A stretch of 63,910 nucleotides of DNA, counting the filler. It is 5 parts of 5 records of this genome, joined end to end, with 100 filler letters (N's around TTAATTAATTAA, not from the genome) between each part and the next. Parts side by side here need not be neighbours in the genome. Positions count along the whole stretch, not along the records: positions 18,729 to 33,319 come from SRR31156797_268; 4 more parts are not named here. One strand, 5' to 3'. The notes beneath the pieces are model-generated. The model was given only the letters and a program-made list of their open reading frames with translations. It did no database searches and was not told where the DNA came from. Of the stretch, positions 1,272 to 58,447 are shown one piece after another (position 1 is the first letter of the stretch; each line of letters opens with the position of its first letter). A program made the position numbers and the translations under genes.

Positions 1272-2627
1272 ATGTTTACAGTCGGAATCATCGGCAGACC
1301 AAATGTCGGCAAATCGACACTTTTCAACAGACTTGCGGGGAAAAGACTCGCCATCGTAGACGACATGCCCGGTGTCACCAGAGACAGAATAGAGTTTACC
1401 TCTGAATGGCAAGGCGAAAGATTCAGCATTGTAGACACAGCAGGTTTCGACCTTAAAGAAGAGCTTGTAAAGAAAGAGATGCAGCAACAGTTTTACTCTG
1501 CTCTCGATGAAGCAGACTTCTTTATCCTTATGTCTGACGGAACGGAAGGGATCCATCCGCTTGATGAGATCGTAGTTGATATGCTCCGCCAGAAGGAAAA
1601 GCCTTATGTGCTTGTTGTAAACAAGGTCGATTCAGATTCACGTGAAGACCTTATTTTCGAATTTTATAAACTCGGTTGCGAAAAGATCATCTCTATCAGT
1701 GCGACCCACGGGCGTAATGTTGATGAGCTTCTCGACGAAGTTATCAGCCATATCCCGGAAGGGCACGACGCTTCTGACCCGTATAAAGGACGTATAAAGC
1801 TTGTTATCACAGGTCGTCCTAACACTGGTAAATCGAGCATGATCAACAAGTGGCTCGGTGAAGAGCGTCTCATCGTTACACCTATCCCCGGCACTACCCG
1901 TGATGCTGTTGATACATTTTTTGAGATAGACGGGGACAAATATGTCCTTATCGATACAGCAGGAATCCGTAAAAAGAAGTCTATGTTTAAAGACAAGATA
2001 GAAAAATACGGCTACTACCGCTGGAAGGACGCTGTTGAGCGTGCTGACGTTTCTGTTTGTATCATTGATGCAGTCGAAGGGCTTACTGAGCGTGACGTAA
2101 AGGTTATCGCTGATACTTGGGAAGCGGGAAGACCTGTTATCCTCGTTATCAACAAATGGGACCTAATCGAAGAGAAGGACGAGCAGGCTAAAGCGTTTAT
2201 GAGCGACATAGACTATAAGCTCCAGTTCCTTAATAATCCTCCGATCATCTTCACATCTACTATCACAGGTAAGAACATTTATAAGATTTTTAAAGCTGCG
2301 AAAGAGCTTTACATAGAATCTGAGAAGAGAATAAGCACTCACAAGCTTCAGCACATCATTGAAGAAGCTGTCTACAGACATCAGCCGCCTGTTGTTAAAA
2401 ACAGACGTATCAAATTTTACTACATCACTCAGGTGAGCATTCTGCCGCCAGAGTTTATCGTATTTGTTAATTACCCAGATTCAGTTCACTTCTCTTACCA
2501 GAGGTTCCTGAAAAACCTCATCAGAGAATTCCACGGATTTTCCGGTGTGCCTATCAAGCTGCACCTTCGAAAACGTGGTGAGAGTAAAGGTGGGCTTATG
2601 GGTGAGGATATGAATAAACAACATTAA
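1272..2627 (+). CDS. der: ribosome biogenesis GTPase Der (EngA)
   Basis: Two G domains (GRPNVGKS/DTAG/NKVD; GRPNTGKS/DTAG/NKWD) and a KH-like tail. Confidence 0.97.
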   Translation: MFTVGIIGRPNVGKSTLFNRLAGKRLAIVDDMPGVTRDRIEFTSEWQGERFSIVDTAGFDLKEELVKKEMQQQFYSALDEADFFILMSDGTEGIHPLDEIVVDMLRQKEKPYVLVVNKVDSDSREDLIFEFYKLGCEKIISISATHGRNVDELLDEVISHIPEGHDASDPYKGRIKLVITGRPNTGKSSMINKWLGEERLIVTPIPGTTRDAVDTFFEIDGDKYVLIDTAGIRKKKSMFKDKIEKYGYYRWKDAVERADVSVCIIDAVEGLTERDVKVIADTWEAGRPVILVINKWDLIEEKDEQAKAFMSDIDYKLQFLNNPPIIFTSTITGKNIYKIFKAAKELYIESEKRISTHKLQHIIEEAVYRHQPPVVKNRRIKFYYITQVSILPPEFIVFVNYPDSVHFSYQRFLKNLIREFHGFSGVPIKLHLRKRGESKGGLMGEDMNKQH

Positions 2628-2844
2628 GCACCTCAAAACTCGCTTAATCTATGGTCTGTGTTTTATTTTTAATGAAATATTGTAAAATCACTTATAATAT
2701 TTAAAAATACCGCTGTACCTGTTCATTTCTACTGGAAATCTCCGATAAGTTGTAATATAACCGTTAACTTATACTCTTTTTGCGTCGCAACAAAAAGTAG
2801 TCTAACAATAACGGGTGAGACCCCCGAATAATAAAGGTGTAAAA

Positions 2845-4158
2845 ATGCGCTATGATTTAGCCAAGAGCGGAAATGGGTTAACCTATGAAATCCGCAACAT
2901 TGTCACAGTAGCTAACCTACTGGAGAAACACGGAGTCGAAATATGTTACGAAAACATAGGCGACCCTGTGGCGAAAGGTGAAGTTATACCAACATGGATG
3001 AAAGAGACCATCGCGGATATCGTTGTAAACAACGACCTCTCCTTCGCTTACTGCCCTACTAAAGGTGTCGATGATGTACGTCAGTTTCTGGCCGATAAGA
3101 ACAATGCCAGAGGCGGTGCCCAGATATCTAAAGAGGACATTATATTTTTCAACGGACTTGGCGACGCAATAGCACGAGCGTATAGCTCAATCAGAGTAGA
3201 TGCCAGGATAATGCTTCCTGAGCCGACCTACTCAACACACCTTCTGGCGGAGGTGCTACACGCATCATATCCTCCAAACACTTATAGAATGAATCCTTAC
3301 GACAACTGGAAGCCTGACCTTAATGAGCTTGAGCGTAAGGTTAGAAGCTCTAACTCTGTTGTTGGTATCCTCGTTATCAACCCTGATAATCCGACAGGAT
3401 ACGTGCATACAGAGGAAGACCTCAGAAGAATTGTCGAGATAGCTAAAGAGTACGAGCTTATGCTTGTGTTCGACGAGATATATCTGAATATGGTTTACAA
3501 CGGCAAGAAGACACTTGCCCTGGCTGACATTATAGGTGATGTGCCTGGTATATCTATGAAAGGTATCTCTAAAGAGTACCCTTGGCCTGGCGCCAGATGC
3601 GGCTGGATAGAGGTTTATAACGCTGATAAGGATGAGCAGTTTGCTCGCTTTGTTAACGCTGTGCTCAATCAGAAGATGTCTGAGGTTTGCTCAACGACAC
3701 TTCCTCAGCTCACTATACCAGAGATAATGGGGCACGAGAATTATGACGGATACCTTAATGAGAGACTCAGACATTATGAGAATCTCTCTAATATCGCATA
3801 CAACATCCTGAAGGACTGCCCATACGTTGTTGTTAACCGCTCTGATGGCGCTTTCTATATGTCTGTTGTATTTAACGAAGCTGTGCTAAACGATCAGCAG
3901 ATGCTGAATATCGACATACCTGAGGTTAAGAAGATTGTTGAGGATCTCACTACTTCCCGTGTAAATAGCGATATGAGATTTGTATACTACCTTCTCGGAG
4001 CTACGGGCATATGTGTTGTTCCGCTAACATCGTTCTTCACATCTACTCCTGGGTTCCGTATGACTTTACTGGAGAAGGACGTAGATAAGTTTGAGCAGAC
4101 AGTTAAAACGCTTAAAGATAAGATTGTTGAGTATGTAGAATCAGGTAAATGCTACTAG
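2845..4158 (+). CDS. PLP-dependent class I/II aminotransferase (AlaA/AspC-like)
   Basis: NIGDP, INPDNPTG, DEIY, ISKEYPWPGARCGW; ATG at 2845 follows an AAAGGTG RBS. Confidence 0.9.
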   Translation: MRYDLAKSGNGLTYEIRNIVTVANLLEKHGVEICYENIGDPVAKGEVIPTWMKETIADIVVNNDLSFAYCPTKGVDDVRQFLADKNNARGGAQISKEDIIFFNGLGDAIARAYSSIRVDARIMLPEPTYSTHLLAEVLHASYPPNTYRMNPYDNWKPDLNELERKVRSSNSVVGILVINPDNPTGYVHTEEDLRRIVEIAKEYELMLVFDEIYLNMVYNGKKTLALADIIGDVPGISMKGISKEYPWPGARCGWIEVYNADKDEQFARFVNAVLNQKMSEVCSTTLPQLTIPEIMGHENYDGYLNERLRHYENLSNIAYNILKDCPYVVVNRSDGAFYMSVVFNEAVLNDQQMLNIDIPEVKKIVEDLTTSRVNSDMRFVYYLLGATGICVVPLTSFFTSTPGFRMTLLEKDVDKFEQTVKTLKDKIVEYVESGKCY

Positions 4159-15588: not shown

Positions 15589-16437
15589 TTAAAGTGTAGC
15601 TTCGAAAGCCTTCATAGTGTTGGCAAGAAGCATAGCGATAGTCATTGGTCCTACACCGCCAGGCACAGGTGTTATATAGCTAGCCTTCTTTTCAACTTCT
15701 TCGAAAGCAACGTCACCACAAAGCTTTCCATCGTCTTTACGGTTCATTCCAACGTCAATAACCACTGCACCCTCTTTAACGAAATCAGCAGTGACATATT
15801 CGCCTTTACCTATCGCCGCAACGATGATATCTGCACCTTTACAAACCTCAGCGATATTCTTTGTGCGTGAGTGACAAACAGTAACAGTACAATTAGCTTT
15901 AGTAAGCAGTGATGCCATAGGTTTACCAACAATATTACTGCGTCCTATGACTACGGCTGATTTGCCGGAAGTTTCGATACCGTACTCTTTAAAAAACTCC
16001 ATACAGCCAAATGGTGTGCAAGGGAAGAGTGTATCGTCACCGATGTTCATAAGCCCCACGTTAAATGGGTGGAAACCGTCTACATCCTTCTTAGGATCTA
16101 TAGCGTAGAGAACTTCGTTCTCCTTGATCTGATCCGGAAGCGGGAGCTGAACAAGGATACCATTAATAGTATCATCGTTATTATACTCCGCAACCTGAGC
16201 GAGAAGCTCCTCAGTCGTAGTTGTTTCCGGCATACGGTTAACGATGGACTTGTATCCAGCCTCTTCGCACGCTTTATTTTTCATACGGACATAAACCTGA
16301 CTAGCTGCATCCTCACCAACGAGTATTACAGCGAGCCCAGGAACTCTGCCAGTATCTGCCTTATATTTGTCTACCTTAGTCTTCAGTTCCGCTCTGACCT
16401 TCGCCGCCAGTGCTTTCCCGTCCATCAGTGTCGCCAT
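15589..16437 (-). CDS. folD: methylenetetrahydrofolate dehydrogenase/cyclohydrolase
   Basis: [37 protein letters not shown]. Confidence 0.97.
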
Positions 16438-18628
16438 TGATATTCCCCTCTTTAATTACTGCAAAAGCTATGATGTCGTCGTCGTTAGTATCCATAAGCT
16501 TAACGCCCATAGTGTCACGACCCATCTTAGAGATGCCTTTAACCTCTGTTCTGATAGTTTTCGCAGACTTAGTTATAATCATTACATCATCATTTTCAGT
16601 TACCTGTTTAGCACCAACTACAAAGCCGGTCTTAGGACTCACTCTGCAAAGCTTAAGCCCCTTACCGCCTCTGGTCTGTACACGGTATTCACCAACAGGT
16701 GTTCTCTTACCAAAACCGAGAGATGTAACAGAAAGGATGTAAGGCGCTCCGGTGAGAACCTCCATACTCATAAGCTCATCTCTATTCTCTAAAGTAATAC
16801 CTCTGACTCCGCTAGTGCTTCTACCCATAGCTCTTGCATCAGTAGATGAGAACTGGATAGTTTTACCACCTTTGGTGGAGAGGATAATTGTATCTTCGTC
16901 AGTTGTGATATCCGCAGTGAGGATCTCGTCACCCTCACGAAGTTTGATAGCTACAATTCCGCTTCGTCCTGACTTGAACTCTTCGAGGCTTGTCTTTTTA
17001 ACAACACCCTCTTTAGTAGCGAAGAAGAGATATTTACCTTCTGTCTCCTGAGGTACAGCAACAACAGATGCAACGAATTCATCGTGCTCAAGTGTCAGCA
17101 GGTTAGATATATGTCTGCCTTTAGCATCACGAAGAGCTTCCGGCAGAGTGTAAACCTTAAGGTAATGAACCTTACCAGTGTTGGTAAAGAACATAAGCCT
17201 TGTATGGTTAGTGGTTACAATCAGGCGCTCAACAAAGTCTTCCTCTTTGCTTCCTGCACCGGTCTTCCCTTTACCGCCACGCTTCTGCGCTACATAGCTT
17301 GAAAGAAGTGTGCTCTTCACATAGCCGTTATGTGTCATAGTTACAACTTTTTCTGTATTAGGGATAAGGTCTTCGTCTTCGAATTCCTGAAGCCCTGGTG
17401 CTATCTCAGTTCTTCTTTCGTCGCCGTATTTATCAAGAACTTCCTCAAGCTCATCTTTGATGACGCCCATCATAACCGCACGGTTACCGAGGATGCTCTT
17501 GTAATATTCGATATCTTTAAGTGTAGCTTCGTACTCTTCCTTCAGCTTTTCAATCTCAAGACCTGTAAGCTTCTGGAGTCTCATCTCAAGGATAGCTTGT
17601 GACTGAATGTCAGAGAAACCAAACTTTTCACAAAGGTTCTTTTTAGCATTAGCAGTATCTTTAGAAGCCTTAATCGTTTTGATCACTTCATCGATATTTT
17701 CAACTGCTTTAATAAGACCTTCTAAGATGTGAAGTCTCGCCTCAGCTTTATTAAGGAGGAACTGTGTCCTTCTCGTAACAACGGTTACACGGTGCTTGAT
17801 GAATTCCTCAAGAATCTGTCGAAGGTTAAGTGTTTGAGGCTTACCGTCAACGATCGCAACCATGTTGAAACCGAAAGAAGTCTGGAGCTGAGTAAATTTA
17901 TAGAGTCTATTAAGGACAACGTCTACATTCTCACCCTTTTTAAGCTCAATAACCACTCTGATTCCGTCTTTGTCAGATTCGTCCCTAAGGTCAGTGATAC
18001 CAGTAACCTTCTTATCAGCAACCAGCTCAGCGATCTTTTCGATCATATTCGCTTTATTTACAAGGTAAGGGATTTCATTTACTACAATTACAGGTTTACC
18101 AGACTTAGTCTCCTCGAAAGAGACCTTAGCTCTGATAGTGATTGATCCACGCCCAGATCTGTAAGCAGTTTGAATATCTTTGCTGCCCATAATAATCCCA
18201 GCTGTAGGAAAATCAGGACCCTTAACAACTGAGAGTATGTCCTCAGTAGTGTATTCAGTGTTATCGATCATAAGCTTTAAGGCAGATATAATCTCAGTGA
18301 TATTGTGCGGCGGAATGTTAGTCGCCATACCAACAGCAATACCGGAAGTACCGTTCACAAGGAGCGCAGGTACACGGGTAGGGAGCACAAGAGGCTCCAT
18401 CATAGAACCATCGTAGTTCTCTCCGAAATCTACAGTGTCCTTATCAAGGTCTGCAAGCAGATCATCAGATATTTTTGAGAGCCTTATCTCAGTATATCTC
18501 ATAGCCGCAGCAGAGTCGCCATCTACAGAACCGAAGTTACCCTGACCATCCACAAGCGGATATCTGAGTGAGAAGTCCTGAGCCATACGCACTATAGTAT
18601 CGTAAACAGCAGAGTCACCGTGCGGGTG
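16376..18628 (-). CDS. gyrA: DNA gyrase subunit A (5' truncated at contig end)
   Basis: [18 protein letters not shown] active site, GyrA-box QKRGGKG, beta-pinwheel repeats. Confidence 0.97.
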
Positions 18629-18728
18629 NNNNNNNNNNNNNNNNNNNNNNNNNNNNNNNNNNNNNNNNNNNNTTAATTAATTAANNNNNNNNNNNNNNNN
18701 NNNNNNNNNNNNNNNNNNNNNNNNNNNN
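18629..18728. other. artificial contig spacer
   Basis: N-run, TTAATTAATTAA, N-run. Confidence 0.98.
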
Positions 18729-18839
18729 TCGTGGCTGTATAAGAAACTAATTAAATTTATATAGTTAACAAAAAATTAAAAAAGCAGAAACCACTGTTTC
18801 TACTTTTTTATAATATATTGATTTTTAATTCTTATAATT

Positions 18840-21835: not shown

Positions 21836-22030
21836 TTTTATATAATTTAAATTTTAATTAGTCAAATTATGTAATCATAAATTTGGCTCTGTTTTTCTTT
21901 ATATACTTAAAAAAATTACTAATTAATTATTTAAAAATCACTTTTACTGTGTTATAATTATTAAGGTGTCAATGCAATGATAAATTTTTCGCTTGATATC
22001 GCGATCGTTATAGTTTTAGGAGGACTTATT

Positions 22031-22570
22031 GTGAATATTGATGATTTGTGTGTTTATAAAAAAGCTAACAATATATCAAATACTTTTATTACCTTTACAG
22101 GTCCCTTTTCTCAAGGGATTATTGTTGAATTAGGCTCGGCTATTAAACAATATATTTCTGCAAAGGAAAAAAACAAATCAAAAACTTATGATGTCTTTTC
22201 TGTCTTTATAGAACAAGCGCAAAATATAAATGAGTATCTACACTCTAAAAAAGATAATCCTTCGATATATAAGAAACTGTTTAATTCAGGAATAATTACT
22301 ATTGACGAAGTGGATAATCATTATGCAGTAACATCAGGTAATTTAGTTGAAAAAAGTGATGTTGATATCTTAAAAACAAAACTAGATAAACTAAATCAAT
22401 TAGATTATTCTGAAATAAAAAATCTACATAAAGAAATTCTTAAAAAACCTTTAGCCGATAAGGGATTGGGACTAGTTGAAATGATTAGAAAATCTAAATC
22501 TAATTTGGTATTTTCATTTACCGAAATTGATAAAGAATATTCTTTTTTTCAATTAGAAGTTCAGATATAA
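22031..22570 (+). CDS. siaB: SiaB family (DUF6272) kinase-like protein, copy 1
   Basis: FTGPFSQGII, VFSVFIEQAQNI, SGNLVE, KGLGLVEMIRK; GTG start after AGGAGG. Confidence 0.8.
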   Translation: MNIDDLCVYKKANNISNTFITFTGPFSQGIIVELGSAIKQYISAKEKNKSKTYDVFSVFIEQAQNINEYLHSKKDNPSIYKKLFNSGIITIDEVDNHYAVTSGNLVEKSDVDILKTKLDKLNQLDYSEIKNLHKEILKKPLADKGLGLVEMIRKSKSNLVFSFTEIDKEYSFFQLEVQI

Positions 22571-22672: not shown

Positions 22673-23224
22673 GTGAACGAAGGAAGATTATACGAACTAA
22701 AAAAGATTCAGGATAAATTTGGAGTCTTGATGAGTTTTGCTGGTCCTTTTTCACAAGGTATAATTGAAGAGTTTGGTGATGCAACAAAGGCATATATTGA
22801 TTTTGAAGAGGGGAATAAATCAATAAACTATAATGTCTTTTCAATTTATATTGAACAAACTCAAAATATTAGGAAATACATCGAATCAAAACTGAGTAAA
22901 CCTGATATTTATAGTGAAATTAACAAATCGGGAATTGTCACGATTAGCAAAAGAAATAATTATTTTGCAATTTGCTCTGGTAATTTAGTTGAAAATGCAG
23001 ATATTGACAATCTTCAAAGCAGTCTGGATCGAATTAAAGATCTTGATAGAACTCAACTAAAAGAACTATATAAAACTCAAAGAAAAAAAATTCTTGCTTC
23101 TGATGCTGATGGAGCCGGATTAGGTCTTATTGAAATGGCTAGAAAAGCCAGTACAAAAATTGAGTTTTCTTTTCAAAAGCAAGATGACAATTTTTCTTTT
23201 TTTTGCTTAGAAATTCTTGTTTAA
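22673..23224 (+). CDS. siaB: SiaB family kinase-like protein, copy 2
   Basis: FAGPFSQGIIEEFG, VFSIYIEQTQNIRKY, SGNLVE, GAGLGLIEMARK. Confidence 0.88.
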   Translation: MNEGRLYELKKIQDKFGVLMSFAGPFSQGIIEEFGDATKAYIDFEEGNKSINYNVFSIYIEQTQNIRKYIESKLSKPDIYSEINKSGIVTISKRNNYFAICSGNLVENADIDNLQSSLDRIKDLDRTQLKELYKTQRKKILASDADGAGLGLIEMARKASTKIEFSFQKQDDNFSFFCLEILV

Positions 23225-23256: not shown

Positions 23257-23640
23257 TTGAAGAATTTATTTATAGAAGCCACGAAATCAACACCGAAAGT
23301 TGAATTTTTAGTAGAGGAAAGTTTGTTTAGAATTGAAGGTCAATCTTATCCTGAAAATTCATTTAAATTTTATCAGCCAATTATTGAATGGCTGGAAGAT
23401 TATTTAGACCTTTCAAAAAACAAATCAACATTTGAATTTAATTTTTTATATTTAAATACAAGCAGCTCTAAATGTATAATGAATATCATCGATATCCTTG
23501 AGGATGCCCATAGTGATGGAAAGGATTTTGTTCTTAACTGGTATTACGATGAAGAAAATGAAAGTTTAGAAGAAGTAGCGGAAGAATTTAAAGAGGATAT
23601 AGAGTTTAATTTCAATATTATTCCTGTGAGAATAGACTAA
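23257..23640 (+). CDS. siaC: SiaC family (DUF1987) phosphoprotein
   Basis: ATKSTP, GQSYPEN, YLNTSSSK phosphosite motif, LNWYYD, AEEFKED. Confidence 0.9.
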   Translation: MKNLFIEATKSTPKVEFLVEESLFRIEGQSYPENSFKFYQPIIEWLEDYLDLSKNKSTFEFNFLYLNTSSSKCIMNIIDILEDAHSDGKDFVLNWYYDEENESLEEVAEEFKEDIEFNFNIIPVRID

Positions 23641-23683: not shown

Positions 23684-24379
23684 ATGTCATCTGATTTCCA
23701 ACGTGAACATGAAATTATTGATAAAGCAATAGAATTAATTGATAATACAGACAAATATAGCGAAATCGATTTTCCCGCGGAATATAAACTATTAACCAAA
23801 AACTACAAACGTTTATTACGACAAATTGTTAAATTGACAAATATTAGTGATAAATTACAAAAAAAATTAATCACTGCTCAAGATGATTTGAAAGAATTAA
23901 TTATCACTGATAGTTTAACGAAATTAAATAATAGAAGAAAACTTGACGAAACTCTCGCTCAAAAGGCTAAAATTTCCAATAAGAGCTTAGATCCATTTTC
24001 TGTTATTATTTTAGATATAGATAAATTCAAAGAAGTTAATGATTTCTATGGTCATCATATTGGAGACTCTGTTTTAGTTGAGTTCTCAAGACTTCTTTGT
24101 GAGAATATGCGGCCACGCGACATCCTAGGTAGATGGGGTGGAGAAGAGTTTATGGTTATTACTCCGGGATACACTTTAGAAGAAACTGCTGAATTTGCCG
24201 AACATCTTAGAGACCAAATTGAAAATTTCAATTTCTCAGTGGTTGGCAAAAAGACTGCGAGCTTCGGAGTTTCCCAGTTTAATAGTGGGGACGCCGTCGA
24301 AGAACTAATTATTCGTGCCGACGAAGCACTATATATTGCAAAAAAAAGCGGTAGAAATCGTGTAGAAACTTCACATTAA
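23684..24379 (+). CDS. siaD: SiaD-like diguanylate cyclase
   Basis: N-terminal helix LLRQIVKLTNISD, then TDSLT, DIDKFK, I-site RPRD, RWGGEEF; directly after siaC. Confidence 0.85.
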   Translation: MSSDFQREHEIIDKAIELIDNTDKYSEIDFPAEYKLLTKNYKRLLRQIVKLTNISDKLQKKLITAQDDLKELIITDSLTKLNNRRKLDETLAQKAKISNKSLDPFSVIILDIDKFKEVNDFYGHHIGDSVLVEFSRLLCENMRPRDILGRWGGEEFMVITPGYTLEETAEFAEHLRDQIENFNFSVVGKKTASFGVSQFNSGDAVEELIIRADEALYIAKKSGRNRVETSH

Positions 24380-24413: not shown

Positions 24414-26465
24414 TTGGATAATTTATATATAGAAAGCACTAGTACAACTCCGGAAGTTTATTTTAATAAAAATAAAAATGTGCTAAAAATTGAAGGTCAG
24501 TCTTATCCTGAGAACGCTTTTAAATTTTATCAGCCTATTCTAGAATGGATAGAACGATACCTAGATGAATTAAATGAAAGAGCTATTTTTGAATTCTCTT
24601 TTCATTATTTAAATACAAGCAGTACAAAATGTATTATGAATATTATTGATCTCCTTGAGGACGCTTATGAAGAAGGAAGAGAACCAGTATTAAATTGGTA
24701 TTATGATGATAGCAATAAAGACATGCTTGAAATTGCACAAGAGTTTAAGGAGGATATTAGATTTAATTTTAATATTATTTCTTTAAATCAAAAATTGAAA
24801 GTACCAATGGAATTTAAAACTGAAAATGATACATTAAGTAATATTGAATATGTATTAAAAAAATACTCTAAAGAAAAGGAAACATCTCCTTTATTTACAG
24901 AATACCTGAAACTTGGAAAGAGTTTTAAAAAATTATTGAGACAAATTGTTAAGCTAACACATATTAGTGATAAACAGCAAGAACACTTGATTAAAACCAA
25001 AAAAGAATTAGAGGATAAAACTGCTTCATTAAGTACTCTACTCGATCACGCAGGACAGGGGTTTTTATCTTTTGGAAAAGATTTGATTATCAATAACGAA
25101 TACAGTATTGAGTGTGAGACAATTCTTGATTGCAATCCATCAGGTAAGAATTTCGTTGAACTTGTTTTTACTGATGATGAGAGTGAAAAGGTTTTGATAC
25201 ACAAATCATTGCTTAATATCATTGAATCATTCAAAACAAAAAATAAGCTTAAATTAAGTGTTTACTTGTCTTTATTACCTGAATTGACTATTATTAACAA
25301 CAAACATATTAAGCTAGAATATAAATTATTAGAAAAAAGTAGTAAAATAATGGTTATCTTAACGGATATATCTGAGAAAATTGAGTTTGAGAAAAAACTT
25401 GAAGAAGAAGATAGAATCTTAAGAGTTACAGTTAATTTAATCGCAAATCAATCAATTATCAAAGAGTTATTTCAAGCCTACAAAAACTTCTTTTGTAAAG
25501 CTGCGGAGAAATCTAACATAACTAAAGATGAGCTACAGGAACTTTATAGAACGATTCATACTTTCAAAGGTACATTTGCGCAACACTACCTATTTTTTAC
25601 TTCAAAAGCGTTACACAACCTTGAAAGCGAATTAAAAGAACTTGTCTCTAATTTTGAAGTAACTGAAACAAACAAGATTATTGAAACTTTTAAAACTTTT
25701 CCATTTCAAGAAGAGTTTAAACGAGATCTTGTGGAATCAGAAAAACTTTTAGGTGAAAATTTCTTTAACTTAGAAGATAATAAAAAATTAATTTTAATTG
25801 ATAAATTAGAGATTGCTCAAATAAAATCAATGATCAAACCACATATGACATATGAAGAGCTGCTTGAACTTAGAGGCAATTTAGATAAGTTGACTTTTAT
25901 TTCATTAAAAGAGACTCTAAAAACTTTTTCCAGTTACATTCAGTCTCAAGCAACCTATTTTGAAAAAGATCTTGAGGATTTAAAGGTTATTGGCGATGAT
26001 ATCAAAGTTAATTCTGAGAAATATCGGCCAATCCTTGACGCAATCGGTCATCTGTTTAGAAATTCAATTATACATGGAATTGAAACACCTTATGAAAGAA
26101 TTGCAAAAGGAAAATCTGAAAAGGGGCAAATTACTTGTTCATTAAGTATGGAAAAAGAAAATATATGCCTTTCTATTTCTGATAATGGTAAAGGAATTGA
26201 TTCGGAATTAATTAAAAATCGGCTGTTTGATGAGGGCAATTTAGAAACATCTGTTATAGAACAAATGACAAAGCAAGAGTTAATAGATTATATTTTTGTT
26301 GAAGATTTTTCAACTTCAGAAAACGTTACTGATATTGCCGGTCGAGGTGTTGGTTTAACAGAAATCAAGTCAAAAGTCGAAAACTTTGGTGGAAGTGTTG
26401 AAATAAACACGGAGAAAGATAAGGGAACTGAGTTTAAACTAATTCTTCCATTTTATCAAAATTAA
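24414..26465 (+). CDS. fusion of SiaC domain + SiaD-like N-helix + PAS-like + Hpt + CheA-like HATPase
   Basis: aa 1-125 SiaC (GQSYPEN, YLNTSS); LLRQIVKLTHISD; LYRTIHTFKG (Hpt His); HLFRNSIIHGIE, DNGKG, FSTSENVTDIAGRGVGL. Confidence 0.88.
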   Translation: MDNLYIESTSTTPEVYFNKNKNVLKIEGQSYPENAFKFYQPILEWIERYLDELNERAIFEFSFHYLNTSSTKCIMNIIDLLEDAYEEGREPVLNWYYDDSNKDMLEIAQEFKEDIRFNFNIISLNQKLKVPMEFKTENDTLSNIEYVLKKYSKEKETSPLFTEYLKLGKSFKKLLRQIVKLTHISDKQQEHLIKTKKELEDKTASLSTLLDHAGQGFLSFGKDLIINNEYSIECETILDCNPSGKNFVELVFTDDESEKVLIHKSLLNIIESFKTKNKLKLSVYLSLLPELTIINNKHIKLEYKLLEKSSKIMVILTDISEKIEFEKKLEEEDRILRVTVNLIANQSIIKELFQAYKNFFCKAAEKSNITKDELQELYRTIHTFKGTFAQHYLFFTSKALHNLESELKELVSNFEVTETNKIIETFKTFPFQEEFKRDLVESEKLLGENFFNLEDNKKLILIDKLEIAQIKSMIKPHMTYEELLELRGNLDKLTFISLKETLKTFSSYIQSQATYFEKDLEDLKVIGDDIKVNSEKYRPILDAIGHLFRNSIIHGIETPYERIAKGKSEKGQITCSLSMEKENICLSISDNGKGIDSELIKNRLFDEGNLETSVIEQMTKQELIDYIFVEDFSTSENVTDIAGRGVGLTEIKSKVENFGGSVEINTEKDKGTEFKLILPFYQN

Positions 26466-26519
26466 ATATTTGTCTTGATATTTGTTTCTTTTCAAAGCTA
26501 TAAAAGGGATGATGTTGGT

Positions 26520-27599
26520 ATGAATGAAAAAATTCTTGAAGAGAATAAAAATTTAAAAGAAAAAGTAAATTTATTAAAAAAAGAGATGTTAAAAAATAAA
26601 CTTGAATTTGAAACTAAAAATGGTAATTTGAATAGAATTATGGATCTGTTTAATTTAATTAGCTCTGAAACTAATTTAAAAAAAATAATTCAAACTGTTT
26701 TTAATTATTTAAATAATATCATTCCTTTTGATACTGCCACATTAGTTCTTAAGAGTAATGATGATCGTTTTTTATATCAAACTATAATTAAAAATGAAAA
26801 AAAACTTTTTAGTACACCAAAACATGAAAATAAGTTATCTGAATTTTTATTAGATTTAGTTTATAATAATAAACAATCTATTTTAGCAAAAAATTTTGAT
26901 GAGCTTCTACAATTAACAGAAAATAACGTTGCTCTTCAATCAACATCTTCATGTTTTGCAATCCCCGTATATTACGAAAATACAGAGGAAAATTTTGTTT
27001 TAGTTTGTGAAAGTAAAACTAGTGAAGTATATACAGAAAAAGAAGTATTTGAGATAATTAATCTCTTAAACGGAATAAGCGGCGTTATTAAGAATGCGCT
27101 TGAATTTTCTAATATGAATGAACGAATTACTAAAGACGAACTTACTAAAGTCTTTAATAGAAAATATTTTTTACTCTCTCTTGATAAAGAGATTAAGCAC
27201 GCTAATGAAACCGGCGCTGATTTTACAGTAGTAATTACTGATGTTGACTGCTTTAAAAATATTAACTCTAAAAACACTCATTTTTTTGGTGACAAGGTTC
27301 TTGAGCACATTTCCAGACTCTTAGCCAGAACTTTACGTAGTATGGATATTTTAGCCAGATACGGAGGAGAGGAGTTCATAATTCTTTTGCCAAATACAAC
27401 AGCTAAAACAGCACAATCAATTTGCGAAAGACTTAGAAGACTAATAGAAAACAAAACACGTTTAACTTTAAGTTTTGGTATTGCAACATATCACTCTAAA
27501 CGATCCGATATAGACATTGTTTCCAGAGCTGATTTGGCATTAGCTGAAGCTAAAAAAAATGGAAAAAATAAAGTTATTTATTATGAGAATATAATATAA
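26520..27599 (+). CDS. GAF-GGDEF diguanylate cyclase
   Basis: Coiled coil, GAF-like region, DELT, I-site RSMD, RYGGEEF. Confidence 0.87.
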   Translation: MNEKILEENKNLKEKVNLLKKEMLKNKLEFETKNGNLNRIMDLFNLISSETNLKKIIQTVFNYLNNIIPFDTATLVLKSNDDRFLYQTIIKNEKKLFSTPKHENKLSEFLLDLVYNNKQSILAKNFDELLQLTENNVALQSTSSCFAIPVYYENTEENFVLVCESKTSEVYTEKEVFEIINLLNGISGVIKNALEFSNMNERITKDELTKVFNRKYFLLSLDKEIKHANETGADFTVVITDVDCFKNINSKNTHFFGDKVLEHISRLLARTLRSMDILARYGGEEFIILLPNTTAKTAQSICERLRRLIENKTRLTLSFGIATYHSKRSDIDIVSRADLALAEAKKNGKNKVIYYENII

Positions 27600-32774: not shown

Positions 32775-32889
32775 TTTCTTGGAGAATAGTTAGTTAAAAT
32801 TAGAACCAAGATATTTTGACTCCTTCTTGTTTTTAATGTATAATTTCTTTAATGAATATAACATATATCTAATTATACTGGGAGGAAAT

Positions 32890-33270
32890 ATGCAAAACAT
32901 AATAATTGAACAAAAAAAAGACACACTGGGAATTACCTGTAATTTTGAAACAGAATCAATTATAATAAAAGGAACTTCTTACCCTGAAAATGCTCTTTTG
33001 TTTTTCGAGCCCGTTTTCAAATGGTTAGAGGAATATACAGCTTCTTCTAAAAAAAATATTAATCTGGAATTAAGCATTAATTATCTTAATACCAGTTCAT
33101 CTAAATGCATACTAGACTTACTTGAAATACTTGATGAATATTACGAAAAAACTGGTTTTGGAAATATTATTTGGTTTTACAGTTCAGGTGATAGAAGCAT
33201 GTTTGAAACAGGTGAAGAGTTTAAAGACTATTTATCAGTTCCGTTTAAGATAGTTGAAAAAAAATTATAA
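32890..33270 (+). CDS. SiaC family (DUF1987) protein, detached copy
   Basis: GTSYPENA, YLNTSSSK, WFY, GEEFKD; GGAGG RBS. Confidence 0.85.
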   Translation: MQNIIIEQKKDTLGITCNFETESIIIKGTSYPENALLFFEPVFKWLEEYTASSKKNINLELSINYLNTSSSKCILDLLEILDEYYEKTGFGNIIWFYSSGDRSMFETGEEFKDYLSVPFKIVEKKL

Positions 33271-33319
33271 TGAAATAAAATAATTATAAAGATAAATTTT
33301 AGTTTCTTTTTGATACATC

Positions 33320-33419
33320 NNNNNNNNNNNNNNNNNNNNNNNNNNNNNNNNNNNNNNNNNNNNTTAATTAATTAANNNNNNNNNNNNNNNNNNNNNNNNN
33401 NNNNNNNNNNNNNNNNNNN
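33320..33419. other. artificial contig spacer
   Basis: N-run with TTAATTAATTAA. Confidence 0.98.
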
Positions 33420-48765: not shown

Positions 48766-48865
48766 NNNNNNNNNNNNNNNNNNNNNNNNNNNNNNNNNNN
48801 NNNNNNNNNTTAATTAATTAANNNNNNNNNNNNNNNNNNNNNNNNNNNNNNNNNNNNNNNNNNNN
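48766..48865. other. artificial contig spacer
   Basis: N-run with TTAATTAATTAA. Confidence 0.97.
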
Positions 48866-58347: not shown

Positions 58348-58447
58348 NNNNNNNNNNNNNNNNNNNNNNNNNNNNNNNNNNNNNNNNNNNNTTAATTAAT
58401 TAANNNNNNNNNNNNNNNNNNNNNNNNNNNNNNNNNNNNNNNNNNNN
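58348..58447. other. artificial contig spacer
   Basis: N-run with TTAATTAATTAA. Confidence 0.98.

Follow-up and report, generated by a model that had tools for sequence, protein, structure and literature searches.

A SiaC partner switch joined to a histidine kinase

The open reading frame described here encodes what we interpret, with a probability of roughly 0.6, as a natural fusion of the partner-switch protein SiaC with its own target, a cytoplasmic CheA-like (class II) histidine kinase. The protein consists of a SiaC domain (residues 1–124), a bridge of seven residues and then a complete kinase from Met132 onwards, made up, in this order, of an N-terminus like that of SiaD, a stalk helix, a PAS fold, an Hpt domain and the P3 and P4 regions of CheA. 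Given that SiaC is fused to a CheA-like kinase here and is paired with kinases, unfused, in other bacteria, the Sia switch probably drives two-component signalling too.

The stretch of DNA analysed (henceforth the window, 63,910 nucleotides) is made of five contigs separated by N spacers, and the genomic context of the fusion gene is limited to the contig at 18729–33319, which is 14.6 kb long, has 28% GC and ends at 33319. The relevant genes on this contig are:

21977–22570, + strand: siaB paralogue 1, SiaB-family protein kinase of 197 aa (NF038262 SiaB_fam_kinase, 164 bits, cut-off 85; PF19788, DUF6272)
22673–23224, + strand: siaB paralogue 2, SiaB-family protein kinase of 183 aa (NF038262, 183.5 bits; PF19788, 5e-41)
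23257–23640, + strand: free-standing SiaC of 127 aa (PF09345, 149 bits)
23684–24379, + strand: SiaD-like diguanylate cyclase with small N-domain, ISDKLQ stalk and GGDEF domain (PF00990, 2e-43; best PDB match 7e6g_A, 1.6e-34)
24414–26465, + strand: SiaC-kinase fusion of 683 aa, TTG start, open frame without internal stop
26475–27599, + strand: diguanylate cyclase downstream of the fusion, its N-terminal domain untyped (GGDEF, 7e-37)
32827–33270, + strand: third SiaC-family gene (PF09345, 120 bits), 49 nt from the contig end

The two SiaB paralogues share 47% identity, and in the comparison of the SiaD-like protein with P. aeruginosa SiaD (7e6g_A) its stalk aligned to the SiaC-binding motif. The downstream cyclase matched NF041606 (DgcA) over residues 112–368 with a score under the cut-off, and from its start context the ATG at 26520 is the more likely start. 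Lacking a Response_reg match in Pfam, this cyclase was ruled out as a receiver protein. No receiver gene that could be a candidate for the cognate response regulator, and no siaA, PP2C or SpoIIE gene, was found on the 14.6 kb contig, and a scan for promoters and terminators between 21700 and 27700 gave counts not above those of shuffled sequence.

The frame from 24414 to 26465 runs uninterrupted from SiaC into the kinase. Its parts are:

24414–24785, + strand: SiaC domain, residues 1–124, with Thr68 in YLNTSS
24786–24806, + strand: seven-codon bridge NQKLKVP, read directly; at the same place, the unfused loci show a stop codon followed by a ribosome-binding site
24807–25028, + strand: small N-domain and stalk helix, residues 132–205, with ISDKQQ (Ser185, Gln189), from alignment with stand-alone stalk kinases
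25029–25448, + strand: PAS-fold domain, approximately residues 206–345, with Ser231 and Cys234 invariant in the family (AlphaFold2, Foldseek)
25449–25763, + strand: helical bundle of Hpt type (CheA P1-like), its phospho-acceptor being His382 (codon 25557–25559), from the family profile and invariant H/K/G
25791–26465, + strand: CheA P3-like dimerisation helices and P4 ATP-binding domain (4xiv_A, P3P4)

The SiaC domain and the stalk

An earlier note on this DNA had remarked that the first ~125 residues resemble the adjacent SiaC, and residues 1–124 are indeed 62% identical to the product of 23257–23640 (77/124, E 5e-54). The accompanying claim that the similarity is still visible in the DNA stands as far as alignment A1 is concerned, but it amounts to no more than the protein identity gives at 28% GC. 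PF09345 matches residues 6–123 with 141.6 bits (cut-off 24.5), and P. aeruginosa SiaC (6kko/7e6g) aligns without a gap along residues 1–121, leaving the number of Thr68 unchanged; Y65, N67, T68 and S69 are identical, and the YLNTSS phospho-acceptor motif is intact, as had been noted. The AlphaFold2 model of this domain has a pLDDT of 94–97, and Foldseek placed it in the SiaC fold at TM 0.92–0.95 to 6kko_D, 7e6g_D and 6k4f (6kko_D, TM 0.92, rmsd 1.0; 6k4f, TM 0.95). The equivalog model of P. aeruginosa SiaC, NF038265, gave 129.1 bits, below its cut-off of 150; it expects a stand-alone protein of ~125 aa, and here the domain sits within 683 aa. The features of the P. aeruginosa system on which the earlier note relied (SiaB phosphorylates SiaC at this Thr, and unphosphorylated SiaC binds SiaD at its N-terminal stalk and activates it) agree with the portions of PMC7647112 and PMC8457831 that treat this mechanism.

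The proposed likeness to the N-terminal helix of SiaD also held, at 55% identity between residues 162–201 of the fusion and residues 32–71 of the SiaD-like neighbour (22/40, E 6e-9), with 13 of 14 residues in common in LLRQIVKLT(N/H)ISDK. Met132 falls opposite Met1 in alignments with the stand-alone stalk kinases and with the SiaD-like protein, and the S, D and Q of the stalk motif (Ser185, Asp186 and Gln189 in the fusion), invariant in all nine aligned stalk proteins, correspond to S82, D83 and Q86 of P. aeruginosa SiaD (PaSiaD), the ISDKQQ of the fusion aligning with I81–Q86 by way of the neighbouring SiaD-like protein. In the structural study of the P. aeruginosa complex, S82 and Q86 are described as hydrogen-bonding T68 of SiaC (PMC8457831). 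As these residues align with ISDKLQ and ISDKQQ, the stalk is the predicted SiaC-binding site. The fusion itself has no PF00990 match in Pfam and thus lacks the GGDEF domain of a SiaD-type cyclase. In the full-length AlphaFold2 monomer the pLDDT is 42–61 in the bridge and stalk, with the stalk and PAS regions below 60; owing to this low confidence the monomer is uninformative on docking of the SiaC domain.

The kinase module

Beyond the stalk, each of the domains named in the earlier note was recovered. The PAS-like segment, modelled over residues 187–345, reached a mean pLDDT of 87.9, and its best-ranked Foldseek PDB matches among those listed bear PAS, PAS-like or LOV titles (FlrB, FixL, LOV; E 2e-4 to 6e-3). 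The Hpt domain gave only a weak PF01627 match from the single sequence (E 0.014, 16 bits, below the cut-off of 24.6), but a 41-sequence family profile matches CheA P1 domains (1tqg, 2.9e-7; 2ld6, 4.5e-7; 1i5n, 2e-4), and the H, K and G at His382, Lys385 and Gly386 are invariant in all 41 rows of the family alignment. Profile and His382 invariance together identify a P1/Hpt domain with its phospho-acceptor, in helices (residues 346–446) of pLDDT 76–93, His382 lying within helix 371–390. For the CheA-type ATPase, 4xiv_A was matched at 5.7e-32 by sequence, 2e-60 by profile and 4.7e-17 by fold, with Foldseek TM values of 0.85–0.92 to CheA P4; 4xiv and 1b3q align from P3 through P4, and the N-box and G-box residues are invariant in the family alignment. 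NF041336 and NF007835 matched the P4 region alone, far under their cut-offs. As had been noted, there is no CheW domain: Pfam gave no PF01584 (P5) match, the protein ends just after the ATPase, and the CheA domains P2 and P5, the latter being the CheW-like receptor-coupling domain, are both missing.

The ~490-aa module, with invariant GQGF, EYSxEC, HTFKG, FRNxxxHGIE and GRGVG, places the fusion in a kinase family of 1213 representatives at E<=1e-30; over approximately residues 190–680 it is 33–38% identical to all 150 matches listed. The N-terminal sensors of this family are swappable (HAMP, Cache, GAF, PAS, CBS, 7TMR). The family, [sensor]-PAS-Hpt-P3-P4, is unnamed and its members are annotated as 'ATP-binding protein'.

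Unfused relatives

The same pairing of SiaC and kinase occurs in separate genes. Among 257 family proteins collected, 16 are stand-alone stalk kinases, with the motif always at residues 27–59 and without any other sensor domain. A metagenome scan with alignment A3 as query gave 41 family loci, three with the stalk and 38 without. All three stalk loci (L002, L003 and L004) have siaC directly upstream, at a distance of 8–11 nt in L002 and L003 and of 58 nt in L004, while none of the 38 stalk-less loci had a SiaB or SiaC match. The gene order in L002 is siaA (HAMP+SpoIIE)-siaB-siaC-kinase-REC-REC; L002 and L003 have a single SiaC before the kinase and no cyclase, and in L004 this stalk and PAS precede a GGDEF output. 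Further CheA-like kinases of the stalk type came from a Syntrophomonas MAG (P0122) and a Fusobacteriota MAG (P0148), and these, like the kinases of L002 and L003, share the PAS-Hpt-P3-P4 module with the fusion at 33–38% identity. In 401 Bacteroidota genomes we found 14 stalk matches, including five stalk+HisKA+HATPase_c proteins (L051–L053, L056 and L058) and three stalk+GGDEF proteins, all eight with siaB-siaC upstream. Wherever DNA was available, siaB-siaC lies immediately upstream of the stalk kinases. Some stand-alone stalk kinases carry a C-terminal extension of ~150 aa, which in related family members is annotated as CheX (PF13690).

These siaB-siaC-kinase neighbourhoods lend support to the view that the output of a Sia Thr-phosphorylation switch can be a histidine kinase. 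The fused form was absent from the 150 best matches among 1.84 billion representatives. A word search for long proteins (375–1196 aa) with a SiaC N-terminus, which detects only sharers of a five-residue word, returned 1419 candidates, none of which scored, and a scan of genome contigs with the whole fusion gave one locus, from a Bacteroidetes MAG, whose TPR-like product contains a divergent SiaC domain. We found no relevant description in the literature of SiaC-kinase coupling or of this kinase family. The wiring is not peculiar to this protein, as it occurs unfused elsewhere, and only the covalent fusion is unique so far.

Origin of the fusion and alternative readings

The fusion gene is best read as siaC joined to the neighbouring target gene, and the most likely event behind it is that siaC lost the stop codon separating it from a stalk-type kinase gene next to it. 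This simpler origin follows from the coincidence of Met132 with Met1 of the stand-alone kinases, from the matching lengths (552 aa for the kinase part, 541–558 aa for stand-alone stalk kinases) and from a FastTree tree of the kinase module, stalk excluded, in which the fusion groups, weakly, with the siaC-preceded stalk kinases of the L002/L003 type (SH-like support 86, with a long-branch warning for P0140). The earlier note had instead derived the gene from duplicated and fused copies of siaC and of the 5' part of siaD, with the GGDEF output replaced; this origin is probably wrong, as stand-alone kinases that already bear the same N-domain and stalk exist. We consider such a graft of a local duplicate onto an unrelated kinase unlikely. 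In its favour, both the SiaC domain (62%) and the stalk (55%) are closest to their neighbours among the loci compared, the stalk label needs 4–6 changes on the tree, so that stalks have been swapped among kinase lineages, and L004 has a GGDEF output behind this stalk and PAS; but a free SiaC, P0258, is closer to the SiaC domain (67%) than the neighbour is, the fusion stalk is by eye about equally similar to that of P0122 and that of the neighbour, and both the Met132 alignment with complete kinases and the tree placement tell against it. Since that placement is weak and the label needs at least four changes, other evolutionary routes are left open.

A more radical possibility, which we regard as very unlikely, is that the joined frame is an assembly or sequencing error and that siaC and the stalk kinase are adjacent genes, SiaC acting in trans. 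Where the genes are unfused, stop and start are 8–11 nt apart, a distance at which changing one base could bring the two frames together; there is an out-of-frame TAA at 24784–24786, no second organism showed the fused form in the 150 best matches or the word search, and the in-frame junction was found identical in one 14591-nt contig of a single matching run, which is probably the source of our contig and hence no independent support; a second run of the same sample gave no match to the fusion stretch. Nevertheless, the word depth of the contig is about 40 with no differing letters, and translation signals argue in the same direction: a Shine-Dalgarno sequence precedes each of the five sia genes of the locus (siaB1, siaB2, siaC, siaD and the fusion start, AAAGGAG upstream of the TTG), and Met132 has none in the 21-nt bridge, where a separate kinase gene would need one, as at the siaC/kinase junctions of L002 and L003 (stop plus GGAGG/GAGG). 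For these reasons, depth and start signals, we take the fusion as genuine. Another reading, as doubtful as the graft, accepts the fusion and gives its SiaC domain a different partner, either the stalk of the SiaD-like protein, tethering kinase to cyclase, or SiaB/SiaA, which it would titrate as a decoy, leaving the kinase stalk to be regulated by free SiaC. The presence in one locus of SiaC units, stalks and SiaB paralogues, two of each, would suit it, and stalks identical at 13 of 14 positions make cross-binding conceivable; fusions, however, usually join direct partners, and the single SiaC of L002 and L003 precedes a kinase with no cyclase present. The contact between SiaC residue 103 and stalk residue 91, given as R/D in P. 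aeruginosa (PMC8457831), is D/K in the fusion and S/T in the free SiaC/SiaD-like pair, while the five Bacteroidota pairs, among which four are near-identical orthologues, have D/R or D/K, and L/K in L002 and L/I in L003 make no charge pair. The difference between D/K and S/T weakly hints at separate cognate SiaC-stalk pairs in the locus, and the covariation, in one contact and about four independent lineages, counts in favour of the preferred reading.

A proposed switch and its meaning

For the preferred reading, a fusion of SiaC with its own target kinase, we propose by analogy with SiaC-SiaD that the unphosphorylated SiaC domain would clamp the stalk helices, which run parallel in the kinase dimer, either in cis or across to the partner subunit, and so set the output state of PAS, Hpt and P4; our guess is that clamping switches the kinase on, as it does SiaD. 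Phosphorylation of Thr68 by one of the two upstream SiaB-family kinases would release the clamp, and a PP2C phosphatase, absent from the contig, would reset Thr68. P4 would autophosphorylate His382, from which the phosphoryl group would pass to a receiver protein encoded off the contig.

SiaC/DUF1987 proteins are widespread, and the cyclase SiaD of P. aeruginosa is, to our knowledge, the sole target studied. The authors of the structural paper went no further than to suggest a modulation of "adjacent proteins" by DUF1987 proteins (PMC8457831). A testable second class of SiaC target is offered by the fusion together with its unfused counterparts, namely histidine kinases of two types, with the short stalk motif as the expected route of coupling. 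We narrowly favour the broader view that the small N-domain of SiaD and the ISDxxQ stalk form a portable 'SiaC socket' that in several phyla has been placed on at least three, perhaps four, kinds of output enzyme (GGDEF cyclases, classical HisKA kinases, CheA-type Hpt kinases and possibly class III nucleotide cyclases), with SiaABC serving two-component and second-messenger signalling alike as a general input, not specific to c-di-GMP. Were this true, the fusion would be a natural demonstration that SiaC and the kinase stalk are direct partners. A kinase target would also link Ser/Thr partner switching directly to His-Asp phosphorelays, and SiaC plus stalk would be a regulatory module small enough to transplant when kinases or cyclases are engineered. 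Having both partners in fixed stoichiometry, the single chain is convenient for structural and biochemical work.

Comparison with known systems

With SiaABCD of P. aeruginosa, as described in the pertinent sections of PMC8457831 and PMC7647112 (7E6G), the locus has in common the genes for SiaB-family kinases and a SiaC fold whose Thr68 sits in YLNTSS. The targets agree as well, each having a small N-domain followed by a coiled-coil stalk with the S/D/Q residues that contact Thr68 in P. aeruginosa. The locus differs in its output, an Hpt/CheA-type histidine kinase in place of a GGDEF cyclase, in the covalent joining of SiaC to its target, in having one SDxxQ motif per stalk where two binding motifs are reported for PaSiaD (PMC8457831/PMC7647112), and in a contig with two SiaB paralogues and no siaA. 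The likeness to CheA (1B3Q, 4XIV, 1TQG) lies in a phospho-acceptor His on a four-helix bundle of Hpt type, behind which come P3-like helices and a P4 ATPase whose N and G boxes are conserved; unlike CheA, the fusion has no P2 or P5/CheW-like domain, and hence no coupling to receptor arrays, and takes its input through an N-terminal stalk and PAS domain.

Further close counterparts are the kinases of L002, L003, P0122 and P0148 and the stalk-HisKA kinases of Bacteroidota, for which we found no published study in the literature. They have the same N-domain and stalk motif but are encoded apart from siaC, and those of Bacteroidota have a classical HisKA/DHp core instead of a CheA-type one. A parallel in design is the RsbRST stressosome of Vibrio vulnificus (PMC9237108, in the parts that concern its outputs), where interaction with a downstream two-component protein could not be shown. 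There too a Ser/Thr partner switch adjoins, and presumably controls, histidine kinases or cyclases, acting through a portable N-terminal adaptor on the output protein, RsbU_N-like in that case. The two systems are built from families unrelated in sequence (STAS/RsbT and DUF1987/SiaB), and the acting partner, the kinase RsbT in the stressosome as outlined in PMC9237108, would in the Sia locus be the phosphoprotein SiaC.

Genomic context of the fusion gene

The five contigs of the window differ in GC content (0.41, 0.28, 0.37, 0.43 and 0.54, in order) and may derive from more than one organism. They are joined by spacers of 44 N, 12 bases and 44 N (18629–18728, 33320–33419, 48766–48865 and 58348–58447), the first of which cuts a gyrA ORF (16376–18592) whose N-terminal ~100 residues are absent. 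The genomic context usable for the fusion was only the contig at 18729–33319 (14,591 nt), on which the genes from the first SiaB-family kinase to the second GGDEF gene all lie on the same strand with short intergenic gaps:

21977–22570, plus strand, SiaB-family kinase gene 1
22673–23224, plus strand, SiaB-family kinase gene 2 (the two kinases share 47% identity)
23257–23640, plus strand, free siaC
23684–24379, plus strand, SiaD-like GGDEF gene
24414–26465, plus strand, SiaC–kinase fusion ORF
26475–27599, plus strand, second GGDEF gene, 3' of the fusion
32827–33270, third SiaC-family gene, 49 nt before the contig end

The listed TTG start of the third SiaC gene yields an odd N-terminal extension, and translation probably begins at the internal Met ahead of QNIIIEQKK. 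Neither a PP2C gene nor a response regulator was found on the 14,591-nt contig.

Domain architecture of the fusion protein

The 683-residue frame is open throughout and has a good ribosome-binding site at its start. An earlier note, made from the sequence alone, had described it as a duplicate of the adjacent SiaC followed by a near copy of the cyclase N-terminal helix, a PAS-like segment, an Hpt and a CheA-type ATPase lacking CheW, and every one of these elements was recovered. Residues 1–124 form a SiaC domain (PF09345, 141.6 bits; AlphaFold2 pLDDT 94–97; TM 0.92–0.95 on SiaC structures) that is 62% identical to the neighbouring SiaC and retains YLNTSS. Since it aligns with Pseudomonas aeruginosa SiaC without gaps, Thr68 of this motif corresponds to the known phospho-acceptor position. 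Residues 162–201 share 55% identity with the N-terminal stalk of the adjacent cyclase, a region that was unreliable in the full-length AlphaFold2 monomer. When folded with 40 homologues, residues 187–345 gave a confident PAS fold (pLDDT 87.9) whose Foldseek matches were PAS domains. Within it, Ser231 and Cys234 of the EYSxEC motif (25104–25115, residues 231–234) are invariant in two family alignments of 41 rows each (A5, A8), and for the kinase family as a whole the cysteine may mark a site of cofactor binding or redox activity. The Hpt scores under the Pfam threshold as a single sequence, but a 41-member family profile matches CheA P1 structures (1tqg, 2.9e-7; 2ld6, 4.5e-7) and three residues of HTFKG do not vary across that alignment (His382, Lys385 and Gly386 in the fusion). 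The C-terminus is CheA P3–P4 (4xiv, 5.7e-32; TM 0.85–0.92 to P4), after which the protein terminates with no CheW-like domain.

A family of kinases with exchangeable sensors

The last ~490 residues of the fusion belong to a large family, with 1213 representatives at E≤1e-30 among 1.84 billion proteins and 33–38% identity to the fusion kinase part. Its members share a PAS–Hpt–P3–P4 module behind varied N-terminal sensors (HAMP, Cache, GAF, PAS, CBS or 7TMR-type). Among the loci fetched, a receiver-domain gene follows most family kinases within ~1 kb, some receivers carrying GGDEF, and the kinases thus look like working two-component kinases. Such a receiver was seen in L005, L009, L021, L033, L042 and other loci, in several cases with a GGDEF match just behind it; c-di-GMP synthesis may be a frequent output of the family.

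In 16 of 257 collected family proteins, a small helix at the N-terminus and a stalk with (K/R)ISDxxQ at residues 27–59 stand in place of the sensor domain. These comprise seven of eight short matches (the eighth, P0169, has no such motif) and nine proteins from the sensor-diverse set; two stand-alone stalk kinases have a named source, a Syntrophomonas MAG and a Fusobacteriota MAG. Met132 of the fusion aligns with Met1 of these stalk kinases and of the SiaD-like cyclase, and all 9 aligned rows keep the S, D and Q of the motif. In the SiaC–SiaD crystal structure, as described in PMC8457831, Thr68 of SiaC inserts between the two stalk helices and hydrogen-bonds to SiaD Ser82 and Gln86, and SiaC R103 pairs with SiaD D91. 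On 7e6g_A, ISDKLQ of the SiaD-like protein falls on I81–Q86, which places ISDKQQ of the fusion (Ser185, Gln189) at the predicted SiaC-binding site. At the positions equivalent to R103/D91 the fusion has D/K and the free SiaC/SiaD-like pair S/T; five Bacteroidota pairs show D/R or D/K, L002 shows L/K and L003 L/I. The pattern is only suggestive of cognate SiaC–stalk pairing.

Stalk proteins beside siaC in other genomes

Scanning metagenomes with the N-terminal alignment gave 41 loci. Only three carried the stalk, each with siaC directly upstream; the remaining 38, without stalk, had no SiaB or SiaC match. The three are:

L002: siaA (HAMP and SpoIIE phosphatase), siaB, siaC, stalk kinase (708 aa), REC, REC
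L003: siaC, kinase (551 aa), separate ORF resembling the extra C-terminal part of the L002 kinase
L004: siaA-siaB-siaC operon, then a fourth gene (2421–3236) with stalk (ISDVQS variant), family PAS and GGDEF

The fourth gene of L004 is a hybrid, part SiaD and part family kinase. The family PAS part also occurs in L018, L026 and L030, with a GGDEF match directly after it in L018 and several kb off in the other two.

The same profile found 14 stalk matches in 11 of 401 Bacteroidota genomes. Five were joined to HisKA and HATPase_c and three to GGDEF, with siaB-siaC upstream in all (5/5 and 3/3). Three more carried a class III adenylate/guanylate cyclase (PF00211; L055 1417–2400, L057 1474–2454, L063 1441–2388), and neither siaB nor siaC lay within 1.5 kb of these. 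The last three matches, short ORFs of 82–94 aa directly behind siaC (L059 1516–1800, L060 1486–1734, L061 1474–1731), hold little beyond the N-domain and stalk, and may be stalk-only proteins or remnants. The recurrence of siaC next to stalk kinases in both collections therefore points to histidine kinases as partners of the Sia switch in at least two sets of organisms, with two core types that are unrelated to each other.

Reality and origin of the fusion

A fusion elsewhere would score its SiaC part on top of the kinase, but none of the best 150 among 1.84 billion representatives (top score 311 bits) covered residues 1–128. A word-based search of proteins of 375–1196 aa with residues 1–200 likewise found nothing, and the 56 SiaC homologues among shorter proteins were all of 122–136 aa (best identity 67%). 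Another type of SiaC fusion was seen in L001 (2–775), an ORF open at the contig end with a TPR-like region and a divergent SiaC domain, which has YLDKTN in place of YLNTSS and is probably devoid of the phospho-acceptor. The Bacteroidetes MAG of this locus (G001) has 15 SiaC-domain matches, three of them in tandem on one contig (C64:1283–2608; L045, L048, L050), one with an internal TGA.

That the fusion is an artefact seems improbable. The only run with this sequence is probably its source and is available as contigs; it contains one identical 14,591-nt contig, which is no independent check, but whose word depth of ~40 argues against a random base error. The better argument for a real fusion is that no ribosome-binding site precedes Met132. 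In both L002 and L003 a ribosome-binding site lies within the 8–11 nt that separate the siaC stop from the kinase start, and each of the five sia genes at the fusion's own locus has one; the same place in the fusion holds seven sense codons (NQKLKVP). From Met132 the protein measures 552 aa, against 541–558 aa for stand-alone short forms. In a FastTree of the kinase module without stalk (88 rows: all 18 stalk-type and 70 random from 179 others) the fusion clusters with P0148, P0209, P0138, L002 and L003 at a modest SH-like support of 86, with a long-branch warning involving P0140. The bridge, the length and this grouping lead us to prefer an origin by stop loss between siaC and an adjacent stalk-kinase gene. 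The earlier note had proposed instead that siaC and the 5' part of siaD were duplicated and fused and the GGDEF replaced by a kinase, which is less favoured because the part from Met132 matches stand-alone kinases in length, alignment and tree. The stalk label changes six times on the tree, at least four of them forced, so stalks have been swapped repeatedly between kinase lineages.

Proposed mechanism and relation to known systems

The component parts are established, as are the conserved contacts and the repeated pairing of the genes; from SiaC–SiaD we infer the regulatory steps. The unphosphorylated SiaC domain would bind the dimeric stalk and phosphorylation of Thr68 by SiaB would free it; the state of the stalk would travel via the PAS domain to Hpt/P4, and His382 would hand its phosphoryl group to a receiver.

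The earlier note knew of no description of the architecture. The fused form is indeed unmatched in these searches, but it surprises less than the note assumed because the unfused arrangement is already present, unstudied, in public genomes. In the literature searched, which lacked most subscription journals, there was no report of SiaC–kinase coupling and nothing specific on the kinase family, and the term DUF1987 occurred in a single paper. For signalling specialists, the interest lies mainly in the general wiring that the fusion exposes. The system would work like SiaABCD with a different output. Its kinase is CheA-like but lacks P2 and P5, and so does not count as a CheA. A precedent in concept is the stressosome module RsbRST, which occurs beside two-component proteins with RsbU_N-like N-termini (PMC9237108).
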